The position numbers and the translations under genes were made by a program. Positions 7,541 through 14,193 of a DNA stretch of 64,000 nucleotides are shown here, one piece after another. The notes below the pieces were generated by a model. That model did no database searches, was not told the origin of the DNA, and saw only the letters and a program-made list of their open reading frames with translations. Source of the stretch: an uncultured Gammaproteobacteria bacterium (GTDB lineage Bacteria; Patescibacteriota; Microgenomatia; Levybacterales; UBA12049); NCBI GenBank assembly GCA_964553245.1, contig CAZKJM010000001.1, positions 209,806-273,805 on the forward strand. Reading direction: 5' to 3'. How positions within the stretch are numbered: the stretch's first letter is position 1; the number at the start of each line of letters is the position of its first letter.

Positions 7541-8470
7541 TCATTTGTAAGCTGGTTCTACTGATCTTAGGTTGCCGTTAATCGGGATCTTTAAAAAATG
7601 ACTTAAAGAATTTGCTATTGATAAACCAACTCTTAAACCGGTATACGAACCCGGTCCGGTATTAACTTTTATTTCTGATAGGTTATTTAAATTCATTCTG
7701 TGTTTTTTTAAGATTTTTTCAATCATAGGCAAAACCGCTTGCGCTTTTTGATAATTAATTTTTTGCTTATTAACATACTGCTTTTTCCTGATTTTTATTC
7801 CTACAGATATATATTCATTACTGGAAGTATCTATTTGCAAAATAACATTTTTTTCTTTTGACATTTCTTCGTCGGTTGGGGGATTAATATCTGATATTTC
7901 TATTGCTCCTTGTCTTAATATTTTCCAAGGAATTTTTGAACAATCGATAACCGTCGAAGGTGTTTTTAATTTACACTTTCCTTCCAATGTAAAATCTACT
8001 TTCTCTATTATTTTTAGGTCAATATCAGTTAACTCATAGGGAGTAGCTAAGCCCACAAAGTTTGCAGACGAACCGATTATTGGAACCCCAACTTTGTTTA
8101 TTAAATCTAAAATTTTTTTATTATTTGGCATTCTGACTCCTAAAGTATTTCCATTGCCTCTTATAAGCGGATTTATTTTTTCTTTTTCGCAAGCAAGGAC
8201 AATGGTTAATGCACCCGGCCAATATTTACTTATTAATTTTTCAAAAACTTCCTTAGGAATTTTTTTTAGATACTTACTTGCCATTTCTACGCTTCCCACC
8301 AAAACGGGAAAGGGTTGATTCTTTTTTCTACCTCTTATTTTTATTAATTTTTTAATTGCCCTGTCGCTATCTATCCTACAACCTATTCCAAACGCCGTGT
8401 CAGTTGGAAAAATTATTATTCCTTCGTTGCGAAGAACATCACTTGCTTTTTTTAAATCAAAATCTTTCAT
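7541..8470 (-). CDS. fusion protein: L-threonylcarbamoyladenylate synthase TsaC/YrdC domain plus TsaB (YeaZ) N-terminal-like domain
   Basis: N-terminal IIIFPTDTAFGIGC (YrdC/Sua5 motif). C-terminal ILQIDTSSNEYISVGI ... VNTGPGSYTGLRVGLSIANSL matches the TsaB/YeaZ N-terminal signature (GPGSFTGLRIG). Confidence 0.7.
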   Translation of the reverse strand: MKDFDLKKASDVLRNEGIIIFPTDTAFGIGCRIDSDRAIKKLIKIRGRKKNQPFPVLVGSVEMASKYLKKIPKEVFEKLISKYWPGALTIVLACEKEKINPLIRGNGNTLGVRMPNNKKILDLINKVGVPIIGSSANFVGLATPYELTDIDLKIIEKVDFTLEGKCKLKTPSTVIDCSKIPWKILRQGAIEISDINPPTDEEMSKEKNVILQIDTSSNEYISVGIKIRKKQYVNKQKINYQKAQAVLPMIEKILKKHRMNLNNLSEIKVNTGPGSYTGLRVGLSIANSLSHFLKIPINGNLRSVEPAYK

Positions 8471-8901
8471 TTAAATTCAATCTCTCTTTCGTTATCTTTT
8501 AAATATTTAAATTTTATTTCTGTTCTGTTTTTCGGCAATAATTTTCTTATTTTTTCTGACCATTCTATAGCGACTATATTATTTTTATCGTTGATAATTT
8601 CGTCTAATTCCATTCCTACAACATCGTTTTCGCTATCAATTCTATATAAATCAATGTGGTAAAAATATTTTGCTTTTATTTTTTTATTGTTAAGCTTATA
8701 GCTTCTTACAATTATAAACGTTGGGGAGATTATTCTATTCTTTATACCAAGTCCACTAACTAAACCTTGGACAAAAGTAGTTTTTCCTCCACCCAATTCT
8801 CCTGAAAGCGCAATAACTTCTCCTCCTTTAAGGGTACTAGAAAACTTTTCCCCTAATAATTGAGTTTCTTTGAAATTTTTTGTTATGACCATTTGACTCA
8901 T
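8467..8901 (-). CDS. tsaE: tRNA threonylcarbamoyladenosine biosynthesis ATPase TsaE
   Basis: LSGELGGGKTTFVQGL P-loop typical of YjeE/TsaE; 144 aa; overlaps the fusion gene by 4 nt. Confidence 0.8.
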   Translation of the reverse strand: MSQMVITKNFKETQLLGEKFSSTLKGGEVIALSGELGGGKTTFVQGLVSGLGIKNRIISPTFIIVRSYKLNNKKIKAKYFYHIDLYRIDSENDVVGMELDEIINDKNNIVAIEWSEKIRKLLPKNRTEIKFKYLKDNEREIEFK

Positions 8902-9761
8902 AAATTATTCTTTTTCTTTTTGTAAAAAAGATATCCAAGTATACCACAGATAACCATAAAGACTCCTCCAATTATGGTAAAAATAGGAAATAGATTATTT
9001 TTTCCTTTCACAATAACTTTTTCTATTTTTTTAGTTGGGGTCAGAGTTGCGCTTGAAGTTCCTATATTAATTATATTCTTACCCAAAACCAAAGTTTTCT
9101 TTGTAGTAACGGTTTTATAGATGTTATTAGATTTTACTGTAGTAGTGGTTGTAGCGAAAGTAAGTGTTGTAACTAATTTTGTTGTGTTACTACTCCTCGT
9201 CGGAGTTGGTGTTTTAGTAGGAGACTTTGTGTTGGTTGCGGTTGGTGTTTTAGTAGGAGACGGAGTAACTGTGAAAGTAGGTGTTAACGTAGGAGTTAAA
9301 GTCGGAGGCAAGCTATTCTCACAACCTTTCGTTGAATTAGACAAAACAGTAATCTCACCTACTCCGTCGGGCGATCTTCCAATTGAGACTTCAGATCCGT
9401 AATCGTTTTCATATTTATATTGATCAATAATCTCACCAGTTGGCGAAAACAAAACTACATAATCTCCATCATTATTTAAAAAAGAAGAGCATTCAAAGTA
9501 AGGATAAAGGAGATTTGAGTTATTTATTTCCGAAAGCGATTTTTTTGAACTACTTCCGGAATCGCTTGTAAAATCCGGGTCATCATCTAAGTAATAATTT
9601 AATAGATCTAGATTGTCAGGATTGTAAAATTCAACCCACTCTTTATTTCCTGTTAACGGATGAGGAAAAAATTCGTTAATTTTTAAGCTTGAAGCAAAGG
9701 AAATATCCGTAAAATAAATATTTAGAAAAAATAGTATTAAAATAAATAAAATTTTTTTCAC
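8898..9761 (-). CDS. secreted/anchored lamin-tail-domain (LTD) protein with Pro/Thr-rich linker and C-terminal TM anchor
   Basis: Signal peptide; LKINEFFPHP...EWVEFYN LTD start motif; PTLTPTLTPTFTVTPSPTKTPTATNTKSPTKTPTPT linker; C-terminal hydrophobic helix plus KKKKNNL. Confidence 0.6.
   Translation of the reverse strand: MKKILFILILFFLNIYFTDISFASSLKINEFFPHPLTGNKEWVEFYNPDNLDLLNYYLDDDPDFTSDSGSSSKKSLSEINNSNLLYPYFECSSFLNNDGDYVVLFSPTGEIIDQYKYENDYGSEVSIGRSPDGVGEITVLSNSTKGCENSLPPTLTPTLTPTFTVTPSPTKTPTATNTKSPTKTPTPTRSSNTTKLVTTLTFATTTTTVKSNNIYKTVTTKKTLVLGKNIINIGTSSATLTPTKKIEKVIVKGKNNLFPIFTIIGGVFMVICGILGYLFYKKKKNNL
9199..9262. repeat. 36-bp tandem repeat (2 copies, gttggtgttttagtaggagac core) encoding the PT-rich linker
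   Basis: Identical 21-mer at 9205-9225 and 9241-9261. Confidence 0.7.
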
Positions 9762-9830: not shown

Positions 9831-11057
9831 TTAAAAAGTGTAATTTATGTGTAAATAAAAAGTTTCGAATCCTTCGTCACTTATAACCCTTACATATCTA
9901 AGTCTACATCCTCCTGAGCCAGAATAACTTCCCTGATATAGCTTTCCGCTTTTTACCGCTTTAACGTCCAAAGAGGACCCTTCTATGTCTATACCATTAT
10001 GAAAATTATATATTTGACTAACCCAAGTATATTTAGTTGCCCAAGTCGATCCGTAACCCTGATTAAGCCGTATCCTAGGATCCATCGGCCAATTCCAACT
10101 ACCAGAAGGGTTAAAAGGATCTGCGTCTGCGCTTCCACAAGATGACCCAGAACAGTTTTCATAATCTACCGATTTTAAATAATTAAACGGGTTTTGCACC
10201 GAACCGTCTTTACTAATCATAAAATGGAGATGCGTCCCGCCTGAGTTACATGAAGTCCCTGATATCACTGTTGCAATTTTTTGTCCCTCGCTAACCATTC
10301 CCACTTCTTCTTCCTGTCCCTTACCGGCAACAATTCCTTGAATTGCTTCATATTCCGCTCTTGCCTGAGCTAAAAGATTCTGATAAGTTTGTTCATCATT
10401 TCTGGTAACTGTTAGTAATTGATCTTTAACTGCCTTTTCCGTAGCTAACTGCTGTGTGTATGTTTCTAATTCTTTTTTTAAAGCTTCTATCTTTGCTTTT
10501 TTTTCTTCAAAAATATCTTTTTGATTTGCGTAATCGACTTTTGCCTGTTCGGTTTCGTAAATAAGCCTTTTATCGTGAGTTTGAGCGATTTTTAAGTAAT
10601 TAAGTTTTGTAAAAAAGTTGGATGCATTATTCGAAGACAACAAAACATAAAATGGCTGGACTGTTCCAACCTCATAAGTTGCAACAATCCTATTTAATAA
10701 AACCTTTGTTAAATCATCTAACGATTGCTCTAGGGTGCCAATTTTTTTTGTAGTAGTATCTATGTCTACCTCTAGATTTAATATTTGTTCTTTATTTGCT
10801 TCTATTCTGTATTCTGTTAATTTTATCTGATTATCCATTACCGCGATTTGAGATGAAAGAGTTTTTTCCTGACTTTGAAGCTCGTTTACTTTATTCTGTA
10901 GCTCATTTATTCTTTTTTCTAATTCAGATGCATTAGAAGATACCTTTGTTGTTGTGGTAGTGGATTCCTCTGCGAAACTAAAATATTTTCCCGTTGTAAA
11001 TACAATTATTAGTAAAACTAATGTAAATAAAAAAGTCTTTTTTATCCTTAAAATCAT
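9831..11057 (-). CDS. coiled-coil M23 (LytM-type) peptidoglycan metallopeptidase, EnvC-like FtsEX partner, with apparently circularly permuted M23 domain
   Basis: Signal/TM; long coiled coil; then GQKIATVISGTSCNSGGTHLHFMISKDGSVQNPFNYL (M23 C-terminal half with HxH); Gly/Ser linker; then WNWP...FHNGIDIEG...AVKSGKL...ETFYLHINY (M23 N-terminal half with HxxxD). Follows ftsE-ftsX. Confidence 0.75.
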   Translation of the reverse strand: MILRIKKTFLFTLVLLIIVFTTGKYFSFAEESTTTTTKVSSNASELEKRINELQNKVNELQSQEKTLSSQIAVMDNQIKLTEYRIEANKEQILNLEVDIDTTTKKIGTLEQSLDDLTKVLLNRIVATYEVGTVQPFYVLLSSNNASNFFTKLNYLKIAQTHDKRLIYETEQAKVDYANQKDIFEEKKAKIEALKKELETYTQQLATEKAVKDQLLTVTRNDEQTYQNLLAQARAEYEAIQGIVAGKGQEEEVGMVSEGQKIATVISGTSCNSGGTHLHFMISKDGSVQNPFNYLKSVDYENCSGSSCGSADADPFNPSGSWNWPMDPRIRLNQGYGSTWATKYTWVSQIYNFHNGIDIEGSSLDVKAVKSGKLYQGSYSGSGGCRLRYVRVISDEGFETFYLHINYTF

Positions 11058-11067
11058 AAACCATAAA

Positions 11068-11934
11068 TTATTTTAAATATCTCAAGACTGCTAGAAAACT
11101 TGATACAGCACCAAAGATTAATGCCATTATTATCTCCATAAATAAAAGAATAAATACAGGAAGTGGTGTTACTGGAAACACTTCTATCCCTTTAAAAAAT
11201 TCTGTTAAAACCGGCATAGATGAAAATACTGCTAATGATGCAATTCCCCAACCAATAAATGCCCCAATTATCCCATAGAACATCCCTTCAAGAATAAAAG
11301 GCCAGCGGATATGCCAGTTAGTTGCACCTATTAGCTTCATTATTTCTATGTCTTCTTTTTTTTGAGAAATTTTTATACCTATTATTGTTACCATAATAAA
11401 TATCGACACTAAAGACAAAATCACGATTAAGCCAATTCCAATTCCTCTTATTGCGTTTGTCCAAGATGTTAAAGTCGAAATTACATCTTTTTGATATACA
11501 ACTTCTTGGACAATAGATGATGATTTAAGTGTATCCGAAATTACCTGCAAGTCCTCTATATTGTATGTTGATATCTCAAGAGACGCAGGCAGTACATCAG
11601 CTGTTACTAAATCCAAAAGCAACGGATCATTTTTGTTTTGTTCACGATATATTGCCAATGCATCTTCCTTAGAAACGAACTTTATAGACGCTACTTTTTC
11701 GTTTGCGCGCACTTGATTTTCCAGATTATTCACATCTTCTTGCTTCGCTTCGTTTTTAAAAAAAGCGGTAACTTGTGGTTTTGATTCAAGAAAATTTATT
11801 ATTTTGTGCGAGCCAAATAAAATAAAGGTGAAAAAAGAAATCACCAAAAAAGTTAAAGCCATTATCAGGACTGCAGCCATTGCCTGATACGGTGATCTTC
11901 TTATATTTTTCCAGGTTGTCTTAGTGTGTTTCAT
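11068..11934 (-). CDS. ftsX: cell division permease-like protein FtsX
   Basis: 288 aa; 4 TM helices with large extracellular loop between TM1 and TM2; immediately downstream of ftsE with a 14-nt overlap. Confidence 0.8.
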   Translation of the reverse strand: MKHTKTTWKNIRRSPYQAMAAVLIMALTFLVISFFTFILFGSHKIINFLESKPQVTAFFKNEAKQEDVNNLENQVRANEKVASIKFVSKEDALAIYREQNKNDPLLLDLVTADVLPASLEISTYNIEDLQVISDTLKSSSIVQEVVYQKDVISTLTSWTNAIRGIGIGLIVILSLVSIFIMVTIIGIKISQKKEDIEIMKLIGATNWHIRWPFILEGMFYGIIGAFIGWGIASLAVFSSMPVLTEFFKGIEVFPVTPLPVFILLFMEIIMALIFGAVSSFLAVLRYLK

Positions 11935-12658
11935 GTTTGTGTTTTTCTACACTAGCCGGTGAACTCACCGAATGCTCCTTTTTTATTTTATCGTGATTCT
12001 TATTGTCGTGCACTATTTTTCCTTTTTCAAGTTTAATTACCCGTTTTGATAAATTTTTAACAATATCCAAATTGTGCGTTGCCATCACAACCGTTGTACC
12101 CTTTTTATTAATTTCGGATAATAAATTTACAATTTCCCAAGAAGTAGCCATATCCAAATTCCCTGTTGGTTCATCGGCTAATAAAATATCTGGGGACAGA
12201 ACCAATGCTCTTGCAATTGCTGCCCTTTGAAGCTCGCCACCGGATAGTTGTACAGGAAATTTTTCTTTATGCGCAGTCAATCCAACTTGAGCCAATACAT
12301 CTTCAACAATCTTTTTTGCTTCTACAGAATCCATATCGGAAACCTCCAAGGGAAGCATTATGTTTTCAAAAATTGTCCTATCTTGCAAAAGTTTTAAATC
12401 CTGAAAAACAACCCCGACTTTTTTTCTAAGATGTGGGATTTTTGCGTTCGGTAGTTTTACAACATCCCAATCGTCAACGATAATTACCCCCTCTGTCGGA
12501 AGCATTTCTCTTATTAATAAACGAAAAATCGTAGTTTTTCCAGCCCCTGTTGTTCCAACAAGAAAAACAAATTCGCCTTTCTCTACAGATAAATCCACCT
12601 CTAGTAAGGCATATTCACCTGTTCTGAATTTTTTGGAAACCTTATTAAGCTTAATCAT
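11921..12658 (-). CDS. ftsE: cell division ABC ATPase FtsE
   Basis: Walker A GTTGAGKTT, ABC signature LSGGELQR, Walker B ILLADEPTGNLD. Confidence 0.85.
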   Translation of the reverse strand: MIKLNKVSKKFRTGEYALLEVDLSVEKGEFVFLVGTTGAGKTTIFRLLIREMLPTEGVIIVDDWDVVKLPNAKIPHLRKKVGVVFQDLKLLQDRTIFENIMLPLEVSDMDSVEAKKIVEDVLAQVGLTAHKEKFPVQLSGGELQRAAIARALVLSPDILLADEPTGNLDMATSWEIVNLLSEINKKGTTVVMATHNLDIVKNLSKRVIKLEKGKIVHDNKNHDKIKKEHSVSSPASVEKHKHETH

Positions 12659-13107
12659 TAAAGGACTTCAATTTTGCCGACATCCATTAGCCAACCAGCT
12701 TTTTGTGCTTTTTGTGTTTGTCCCCAAACTTTTGTTTTTTTACCAACATACTTCGACAAATCAACGATTGATGAGGTTAAATAAACATTTTGACTTTCTC
12801 CACCAGGTCTTTCTAAGTGAAAAGCCCCTTCTCCGTCTATTCCTCCTTCTTTAAGCGTACCTTCTGCAATATCTTTAAAAGAACTCATGTCCGAAGCTCC
12901 TTCCGTTGTTCCTTTTTTAATTGAACCTGATTCTATTGCCTGTTTTATATTTATTCCGCTAACGTTTGATCCTTTTGATCCTAATAAATATCCTGTACCA
13001 ATGCCAATTAAAATAACTACTAAAAATATTATTGTTAATTTGCGTGTAAAAAGCGGTTTGTTTTCTTCGAAATTTTTAATCACAGGTTCATTCTTTTTTT
13101 CCTCCAT
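12658..13107 (-). CDS. membrane-anchored hypothetical protein (single N-terminal TM), first gene of the ftsEX module
   Basis: Start revised to the ATG at 13107, which is preceded by AAGGAGGTGA (SD). The GTG at 13116 in the ORF track lies inside the SD. Stop overlaps the ftsE start. Confidence 0.5.
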   Translation of the reverse strand: MEEKKNEPVIKNFEENKPLFTRKLTIIFLVVILIGIGTGYLLGSKGSNVSGINIKQAIESGSIKKGTTEGASDMSSFKDIAEGTLKEGGIDGEGAFHLERPGGESQNVYLTSSIVDLSKYVGKKTKVWGQTQKAQKAGWLMDVGKIEVL

Positions 13108-13161
13108 TAAAATCACCTCCTTTGTCTAGTTAACCATATTTTGCCGTTTTTATCAACAGAT

Positions 13162-14193
13162 CTAAAAATATCGAAGCTCTTCTTCAATAAGCAAATCCAA
13201 ATCTCCATCCAGAACTGCTTCTGTATTTGAGGTCTCATAATTTGTCCTAAGATCCTTCACCATATGATAAGGATGTAAGACATATGATCTAATTTGATTT
13301 CCCCATCCAGGAGTTTTATAACCGCCTTTTAATTCTTCTTCTTTTTTCTTTTTTTCCTCTTCTTGTAAAATCCACAATTTTGCTTTTAACATCTTTAAAG
13401 CATACTCTCTGTTTTTTCCTTGATAACGTTCGCTTTGTGCTGTTACAATAATTCCTGATGGTTTATGTTTTAACCTAACAGCTGTTGATACCTTATTAAC
13501 ATTTTGACCACCATGTCCTCCTGCTCTAAAAAAATCCCATTCTAAATCATCTTCTTTAATCTCCAAGTCAAAATCTTCATTTACTTCAGGCAATACCTCT
13601 ACTAAGGCAAATGATGTTTGTCTTAAATTATCGGCATTAAAGGGGGATTGTCTAACCAATCTATGAACTCCTGCTTCTTTTTTTAAATATCCATAAGCAT
13701 ATTGTCCACATACCTCAATAACAACACTTTTAATACCAGCTTCTTCCCCAAATGACTGTTCAATTATTTCATATTCCCAGCCTTTTCTTTCAAAAAAACG
13801 CGTGTACATTCTAAAAAGCATCTTCGCCCAATCCATTGCCTCAACCCCTCCCTGTCCTGAATGAATTGATAAAATTGCATTACCTTTGTCAAATGGTCCT
13901 GAAAAATATAGTAATGTTTCCAGCTCTTTTAAAATTATATCTGCCTCTTTTTGATTACCCAAGATTGATAATTCCTTCAACTTTTCGCATTTTTCAATCT
14001 CTTCCTGAAGAATAGATAATTCCTTCATTTTATCTGCTGCTCTTTTGTGATCTTGCCAAAATTCAGGATGGGAACTTTCCGCTTCTATATCACGGATTAA
14101 TTTTCTTTTTTGATCGATATTAAGATTTTTTAGTAATTTGTCTATGCGCTCTTTTAGATTTTCCATATTATTTTCCAGCGAGTATTGTAGCAA
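13162..14193 (-). CDS. prfB: peptide chain release factor 2
   Basis: SPF tripeptide (RQSPFNADN) and GGQ motif ([11 protein letters not shown]); continuous ORF. Start may be the internal MENLKERID at about 14166, which would avoid overlap with the upstream gene. Confidence 0.85.

Follow-up and report, generated by a model that had tools for sequence, protein, structure and literature searches.

M23/LytM peptidases, to which lysostaphin-type antibacterials, phage lysins, and division factors belong, are among the most studied peptidoglycan hydrolases, and a fixed order of motifs defines the family. In the M23 site, zinc is bound by the His and Asp of HxxxD together with the second His of HxH, while water is activated by the first His of HxH and a His about 30 residues upstream (PMC9662197). 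A mechanistic frame has been developed for hydrolases controlled by FtsEX, namely PcsB, CwlO, RipC, and EnvC. The LytM domain of EnvC no longer has its zinc ligands; it serves to activate AmiA/AmiB, and a restraining-arm helix keeps it autoinhibited (PMC11627006). Circular permutation has been reported for NlpC/P60 proteins (YaeF/poxvirus G6R, LRAT-like; Anantharaman and Aravind 2003, as cited in PMC6403190). Here we describe a gene on a 64,000-nucleotide stretch of contig CAZKJM010000001.1 (hereafter the window) that follows ftsE and ftsX and encodes a coiled-coil protein with the M23 motifs in permuted order. The catalytic module very probably represents a true circular permutation of the M23/LytM zinc endopeptidase fold, carried by an active septal endopeptidase under FtsEX control. 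The gene and its parts are as follows, in window coordinates:

9831..11057, minus strand: whole gene for the coiled-coil and permuted M23 peptidase, 408 amino acids (aa) plus stop

10971..11057, minus strand: N-terminal hydrophobic signal/anchor segment, aa 1-29 (...FSFA/EE, with a putative cleavage site), from the modelled helix 2-21 and the sequence

10329..10940, minus strand: coiled-coil region, aa 40-243, from DSSP of the full-length model

10164..10316, minus strand: segment A, aa 248-298, with HxH (H276, H278) and C270, matching Pfam M23 positions 62-96

10101..10163, minus strand: connector, aa 299-319 (YENCSGSSCGSADADPFNPSG), bridging the canonical C- and N-termini

9834..10100, minus strand: segment B, aa 320-408, matching Pfam M23 positions 2-53

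A first-pass annotation of the window had described M23 motifs in reversed order at 9834-10325, which correspond to aa 245-408, and the peptides that it quoted were found in the open reading frame (ORF) in the order given. Segment A is the counterpart of the C-terminal third of a canonical M23 domain (GQxIA...SCNSGGTHLHF...NPFNYL; canonical template positions 99-140 by hhalign), while segment B is the counterpart of its N-terminal two thirds (template positions 5-93) and contains WxWP (W321-P324), HxxxD (H353, D357), C384, and the catalytic His of YLH (H403). After the coiled coil, the chain reads VGMVSEGQKIA...GTSCNSGGTH276LH278F...NPFNYL followed by KSVDYENCSGSSCGSADADPFNPSGS, and past the connector it continues with W321NWP...FH353NGID357I...FYLH403INYTF and the stop codon, such that the C-terminus lies 5 residues past H403. 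Thus, instead of the canonical order HxxxD ... His ... HxH, the protein has HxH (H276/H278), WxWP, HxxxD (H353/D357), and the catalytic His (H403), with the codons of H276-L-H278 at 10224-10232, H353-N-G-I-D357 at 9987-10001, H403 at 9849-9851, and the stop at 9831-9833.

Profile comparisons were performed with the native and re-ordered sequences. Pfam PF01551 was found to match the native protein in two stretches, with aa 254-290 aligned to profile positions 62-96 and the later segment to positions 2-53; the halves were significant singly (E-values 4.1e-5 and 3.1e-4) and had a combined E-value of 2.6e-10. In the family test, the score of 37.7 bits exceeded the gathering score of 28.7, though the match consisted of two fragments, and the model was matched by 70 of the 71 family members. 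When a synthetic sequence was assembled in re-ordered form (aa 320-408, then aa 245-302), PF01551 aligned in one stretch over profile positions 2-96 and the score was 46.9 bits compared with 40.8 bits for the native order. Similarly, when 213 family sequences were compared with 17 canonical M23 domains by hhalign, there were two swapped local matches in the native order (88 columns, E-value 2.8e-22; and 42 columns, E-value 4.7e-19) and a single match of 126 columns (E-value 2e-40) after the segments were swapped in silico. Searching the family profile against PDB sequences placed positions 121-175 on residues 40-91 of StM23 (9gy1) and positions 23-65 on residues 100-141, and the identical swap was observed with phage Gp16 (9m7n) and SpoIIQ (3tuf). 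By BLASTP, aa 3-403 of the window protein were collinear with aa 1-351 of P0195, a canonical-order FtsEX-linked protein (coiled coil plus HxxxD half), while aa 254-294 instead paired with its extreme C-terminus (aa 362-400); this two-part pattern was also found with P0187, P0198, and P0203, which are canonical-order FtsEX-linked proteins as well. The four independent sequence comparisons (Pfam, PDB sequences, hhalign, and BLASTP) agree and indicate that the HxH segment, once at the domain end, has been relocated and now separates the coiled coil from WxWP. Judged from the sequences, the swapped-order homology is far beyond chance, and both hallmarks of a natural permutant are present: the halves are homologous in swapped order, and the re-ordered sequence aligns end to end, as the first-pass annotation had proposed to check by profile alignment. 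Because its motif order is permuted, the protein is a variant rather than a standard member of M23.

The domain (aa 240-408) was modelled by AlphaFold2 with a 54-sequence alignment, giving a predicted local distance difference test score (pLDDT) of 92.9 and a predicted template modelling score (pTM) of 0.89; the model contains 12 strands and two short helices. The segments are thus predicted to form a single compact domain in which the old termini are joined, and this compact and confident model of the monomer agrees with the single-fold part of the structure prediction that the annotation had asked for. The full-length model (pLDDT 89.9) had an N-terminal hydrophobic helix and long helices over aa 40-243, located at residues 40-61, 67-130, 135-141, 145-218, and 222-243 according to DSSP, of which helix 222-243 is the best-conserved part of the coiled coil. 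A Foldseek search of the model against the PDB gave no significant match; we attribute this to the limits that sequential alignment has with permuted chains and do not take it as counter-evidence to the fold. The annotation had taken the junction for a flexible Gly/Ser linker, and this part has to be revised: the connector is about 21-27 residues long, is modelled with a pLDDT of 97-98 (domain residues 60-90), and carries the conserved motif DPFNPSGSW with D, F, P, and G nearly invariant. It also holds an optional C302/C307 loop, of which both Cys or neither are present in 209 of 211 sequences.

A second Cys pair spans the two segments. C270 of segment A and C384 of segment B occur together in 160 sequences, while 48 have a shifted pair instead (C271 with C~381), 3 are mixed, and a lone Cys occurs in none. 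Covariation was scored by mutual information with average product correction (MI-APC), with C270-C384 found to be the top pair, about half of the top 20 pairs crossing between segments A and B, and the cross-segment pair M280-N354 flanking the ligands H278 and H353; these scores are inflated by phylogenetic structure and are supportive only. The Cys pair and the covariation suggest that the two segments are in contact, in a supportive capacity.

Conservation of the catalytic residues was examined in 230 homology-selected sequences with no motif filter. H276 was present in 222/222, H278 in 222/223, H353 in 220/220, D357 in 220/220, and H403 in 217/217 sequences. Each M23 motif is represented, with H(x)3D as H353-N-G-I-D357, HxH as H276-L-H278, and the additional His as H403. 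The latter, in FYLH, aligns with the canonical YxHL strand in both the PDB-sequence search and hhalign and is the equivalent of LytM His260; here, this equivalent of the water-activating His lies 125 residues downstream of HxH. The two segments would fold into one domain, in which H353, D357, and H278 would serve as zinc ligands and H276 and H403 as catalytic residues, and the residue pattern indicates that the protein is most likely an active zinc endopeptidase. As the catalytic residues are all kept, the enzyme is expected to cut peptidoglycan cross-links itself and not to activate an amidase as EnvC does. The claims that all catalytic ligands are present and that the domain is a natural circular permutant were thereby strengthened, with the swapped homology, the confident prediction of a single fold, the invariance of five residues in relatives, the covariation, and the wide recurrence described below in agreement.

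The peptidase gene is preceded on the same strand by two genes:

11068..11934, minus strand: ftsX, permease with extracellular domain, 288 aa (Pfam FtsX_ECD E-value 3.6e-17, FtsX E-value 9.8e-15)

11921..12658, minus strand: ftsE, ABC ATPase, 245 aa (Pfam ABC_tran E-value 3e-33)

By ORF coordinates, ftsX and ftsE overlap by 14 nucleotides (nt), and the gap from ftsX to the peptidase gene is 10 nt. For locus comparison, 80 of 206 stretches from genomes with the permuted arrangement were retrieved, and ftsE-ftsX were found to precede the peptidase gene in 74 of the 74 loci with enough upstream DNA, consistent with the FtsEX association noted in the first-pass annotation. The divergent members P0061 and P0199 have the order prfB, a ~150-aa ORF, ftsE, ftsX, and peptidase, exactly as in the window. 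The protein also has the export signal and long antiparallel coiled coil of the PcsB/EnvC type. Pfam CC_PcsB was matched by 36 of 71 full-length family members (best E-value 5e-9), and the NCBIfam EnvC model matched aa 44-241, that is the coiled coil only, with an E-value of 1.2e-7 and 31 bits against a cutoff of 270.

These features suggest a Microgenomates counterpart of the PcsB/CwlO/RipC/EnvC class, in which a secreted or membrane-tethered protein would carry the permuted catalytic module on its coiled coil. By analogy with that class, the protein would bind the FtsX extracellular domain and be released from autoinhibition in an ATP-dependent manner: FtsE ATPase cycles would move the FtsX extracellular domains, and this movement would deform the coiled coil, lift the autoinhibition of the hydrolase, and allow peptidoglycan to be cut at the septum. 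Two points weigh against the reading as an FtsEX-controlled permuted endopeptidase. First, enzymatic activity, FtsEX control, and the consequence for gating are parts of it that we infer only. Second, phylogeny confounds the covariation, and the shift of the Cys pair may reflect one event that split two subfamilies.

The geometry of the attachment to the coiled coil differs as well. In the full-length model, strand 248-255 starts four residues past helix 222-243, and the permuted family is without the 30-60-residue Ala/Ser-rich tether that leads from the coiled coil to WxWP in canonical homologues. In a canonical chain, the YxHL strand, which carries the H403 equivalent, runs on into the hairpin toward HxH, and it is there that the permutant is cut, with its new N-terminus corresponding to the point directly past this strand; with the coiled coil joined at the downstream end of the cut, the lever would come to lie a few residues from catalytic H403. 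A junction of about 4 residues replaces the long low-complexity tether, and coiled-coil movement could gate catalysis more directly. A further step would be to regard the permutation as adaptive rather than neutral. With the last helix fused to the strand toward HxH and both new chain ends beside H403, the coiled coil, when moved by FtsEX, would exert mechanical force on the active site of a catalytically competent M23 endopeptidase. Such rigid-lever control would be unlike the autoinhibition by tether plus restraining helix of EnvC/PcsB, and the domain would in addition have turned into a mobile module, taken up by other large surface proteins (P0150, P0151, and P0173). We put this adaptive reading forward tentatively, as a possible but doubtful extension of the FtsEX-controlled endopeptidase.

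A catalytically silent LytM factor in the manner of EnvC or DipM, which would activate a separate amidase or other hydrolase, is an improbable reading of the protein. EnvC, the best-studied FtsEX-bound M23 protein, works in this manner (PMC11627006), an EnvC was the top full-length structural match, and the Joint Genome Institute (JGI) annotation of family member P0055 is 'septal ring factor EnvC'. However, EnvC is without zinc ligands, while about 220 sequences of the permuted family show no variation at H353, D357, H278, H276, and H403, and the NCBIfam EnvC match noted above is far below its cutoff and confined to the coiled coil. Furthermore, no other M23 protein was found in the 64-kb window, where amidases were not searched for.

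Permutants classically arise when a domain is duplicated and both outer ends are then lost. In another reading, the two segments would be the decayed remnants of a tandem M23 duplication (the end of copy 1 plus the start of copy 2) that do not make up one active domain within a chain, with a site that is dead or formed between chains in a segment-swapped dimer. Natural tandem arrays of canonical M23 domains do exist and were matched by the permuted profile across the domain junction in P0157, P0159, P0174, and P0193, with an HxH-to-HxGxD spacing of 66-74 residues compared with about 58-82 in the permuted family, and for PcsB a dimer with autoinhibition between chains is known (PMC11627006). 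The remnant state is nonetheless distinctly improbable, as (i) the AlphaFold2 monomer is compact and confident, connector included; (ii) the invariance of the five catalytic residues speaks against decay; (iii) the cross-segment Cys pair and covariation fit an intimate interface between A and B, though contacts within and between chains are not separable thereby; and (iv) the tandem arrays, which are no close relatives, match weakly (24-32 bits) and are without the DPFNPSGSW connector. When considered as direct ancestors, these four arrays were rejected for the weak match at the junction and the missing family connector; they make the duplication route plausible and are not its intermediates. 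Duplication and then truncation is thus better seen as the likely origin of the permuted domain than as its present state. A phage origin was also considered and set aside, since those IMG/VR loci in which both halves had at first seemed to be covered proved to be tail or lysin proteins with M23 in canonical order; a permuted copy was not found among the phages of IMG/VR or INPHARED, the latter giving no match.

The permuted domain was also detected outside the coiled-coil proteins. It ends or nearly ends P0150 (1256 aa; L084 5001-8771), P0151 (894 aa; L086 796-3480), in which an Exo_endo_phos domain is present, and P0173 (2174 aa), which has TSP3 repeats. The three proteins keep GsWxWP and the Cys pair and have no ftsEX nearby; the neighbouring genes of P0150 and P0151 were uninformative. 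Since the FtsEX linkage is deduced from synteny alone and the permuted domain occurs in these unrelated large proteins, the window protein might be an active permuted M23 hydrolase for which ftsEX adjacency is mere conserved gene order and no FtsEX control exists. We consider this highly improbable in view of the gene order with ftsE-ftsX, kept in every testable locus (74/74) and in the divergent members, the intergenic gap of only 10 nt, the CC_PcsB-type coiled coil as used by known FtsX partners, and the canonical-order homologue in an equal ftsEX context.

The distribution of the arrangement was determined in genomes and metagenomes. In a scan with one genome per species and patterns aimed at one subfamily, at least 206 species genomes (a lower bound) were found to encode it, including the closed chromosomes CP066693, CP055307, and CP066688. 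The hosts with informative names nearly all belong to the Microgenomates within the Patescibacteria (Woese-, Levy-, Davies-, Roizman-, Blackburn-, Beckwith-, Chisholm-, Shapiro-, and Collierbacteria). The titles 'uncultured Gammaproteobacteria' or 'Pseudomonadales' are borne by about 30 metagenome-assembled genomes from third parties, and three assemblies are labelled differently; the title Spirochaetia occurs once. As the oddly labelled assemblies (L006, L009, L017, L020-L023, L026, and others) have the common synteny and 57-70% identity, these labels were taken as unreliable, and the Gammaproteobacteria, Pseudomonadales, and Spirochaetia titles are probably taxonomic mislabels. Among metagenome proteins, 61 with 45-70% identity have the order, connector, and stop position in common, and a search of 1.84 billion cluster representatives (50% identity) gave 116 matches at an E-value of 1e-10 or below, of which about 100 have the permuted motif order; most of these comprise 380-430 aa, and their C-terminal part contains the permuted domain in full. 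The search of related genomes that the annotation had called for is thus answered, and the recurrence in independent genomes excludes the assembly chimaera it had warned of with no need for reads. A chimeric join or local rearrangement at about 10,150-10,230 that mimics reordering of a normal M23 gene is of negligible probability, as the window is one assembled sequence with nothing positive in favour of such an event, while the order, connector, and stop are repeated throughout the metagenome proteins, genomes, and cluster representatives, and identities of 45-71% denote long independent divergence. Separately, on a low-coverage contig (locus L113, 2772-4801), ftsX is split into 134+153 aa and the peptidase gene into 125+266 aa; these splits are probably sequencing frameshifts rather than pseudogenes.

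Further genes around the ftsEX-peptidase locus were inspected. A 152-aa ORF (12658-13116, minus strand) with an N-terminal hydrophobic segment and without a Pfam match shares one base of its stop codon (position 12658) with the ftsE start codon; it is kept at the same position, with identities of up to 71%, in 70 of the 80 related loci, is also found in the divergent L113 and L114, and may be an uncharacterised fourth component of the operon. Upstream of the operon is the gene for release factor 2 (RF2; prfB, 13162-14193, minus strand), in which a CTTTGA programmed-frameshift site is absent. A programmed frameshift was ruled out for this gene, which has no such site and starts at ATG; its true start is likely the ATG of MENLKERI... 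and not the listed TTG, which overlaps the Nramp gene. Directly downstream of the peptidase gene (8898-9761, minus strand), a 287-aa protein combines a lamin-tail domain (LTD, sub-cutoff in Pfam) with a long stretch rich in Thr and Pro and is anchored in the membrane at its C-terminus; an LTD protein is located a few genes downstream in the divergent locus L113 too. Beyond it, a 309-aa protein (7541-8470, minus strand) with a Sua5/YrdC (TsaC) domain and a short C-terminal TsaD/TsaB-family segment (aa 243-297) is encoded by a gene that adjoins and overlaps tsaE (8467-8901, minus strand), and the two look like a fused, minimised gene set for synthesis of threonylcarbamoyladenosine (t6A).

The finding that a permutant occurs lineage-wide indicates that the M23 fold tolerates re-threading between the YxHL strand and the hairpin before HxH by means of a short ordered connector, and provides protein engineers with a tested design for permuted lysostaphin-type enzymes and fusions. 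For cell division, it points to a second, geometrically different mode in which the FtsEX coiled coil and a hydrolase are attached, found in a little-understood group, the Microgenomates of the candidate phyla radiation (CPR), and comparison with the canonical arrangement could reveal which features of mechano-transmission are essential. The results are of interest to specialists in protein folds and in cell division and leave the paradigm unchanged. There is also a consequence for databases: none of the NCBIfam models reaches its cutoff for the window protein and Pfam gives fragments only, and because the permutation makes the domain-model matches fragmentary, automatic annotation under-calls these proteins.

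The first-pass annotation knew of no permuted M23 domain, in agreement with the literature searched, the coverage of which was partial. No description of M23/LytM permutation was found in the full-text literature, including an M23 review (PMC9662197), with coverage of subscription journals mostly lacking; nor was a permuted peptidase found in the literature on FtsEX/FtsX in the CPR. The permutation thus appears to be undescribed for the M23 domain, though this absence is not absolute. The sole cell-wall peptidase found to be termed 'circularly permuted' in the literature searched was NlpC/P60. As cited, those proteins set a precedent for the present family, since they too belong to a cell-wall peptidase superfamily and have their catalytic residues in an order swapped by natural permutation; they differ in fold and catalytic type. 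LytM, lysostaphin, and LasA, type enzymes of MEROPS M23, have the order HxxxD ... His ... HxH with the catalytic His about 30 residues before HxH (PMC9662197), whereas in the window family this His follows HxH by 125 residues and an extra Cys pair connects the segments.

Among FtsEX partners, PcsB (CHAP), CwlO, and RipC (NlpC/P60) are direct hydrolases of monoderms that are activated by FtsEX, but they are cysteine peptidases of another fold, while the module described here is of the zinc M23 type. The EnvC proteins of E. coli, V. cholerae, and P. aeruginosa (PDB 6TPI, 8TZL, and 4BH5) have LytM in canonical order, in contrast to the permuted order of the window protein, and the ligand loss of the EnvC type is not seen here, where all ligands are invariant. 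The closest counterparts are the canonical FtsEX-linked coiled-coil M23 proteins, such as P0195 (CC_PcsB plus Peptidase_M23), which is encoded in an ftsE-ftsX-M23-ctpB cluster with ctpB specifying an S41 protease. These proteins are like the window protein in having a signal sequence, a coiled coil of ~200 aa, an intact C-terminal M23 site, and a gene directly after ftsX. They are unlike it in that the HxH segment comes after the HxxxD half and ends the protein, and the domain is attached by a tether of 30-60 residues; in the window protein, the HxH segment begins about 4 residues past the last helix, and the old termini are linked by an ordered connector.

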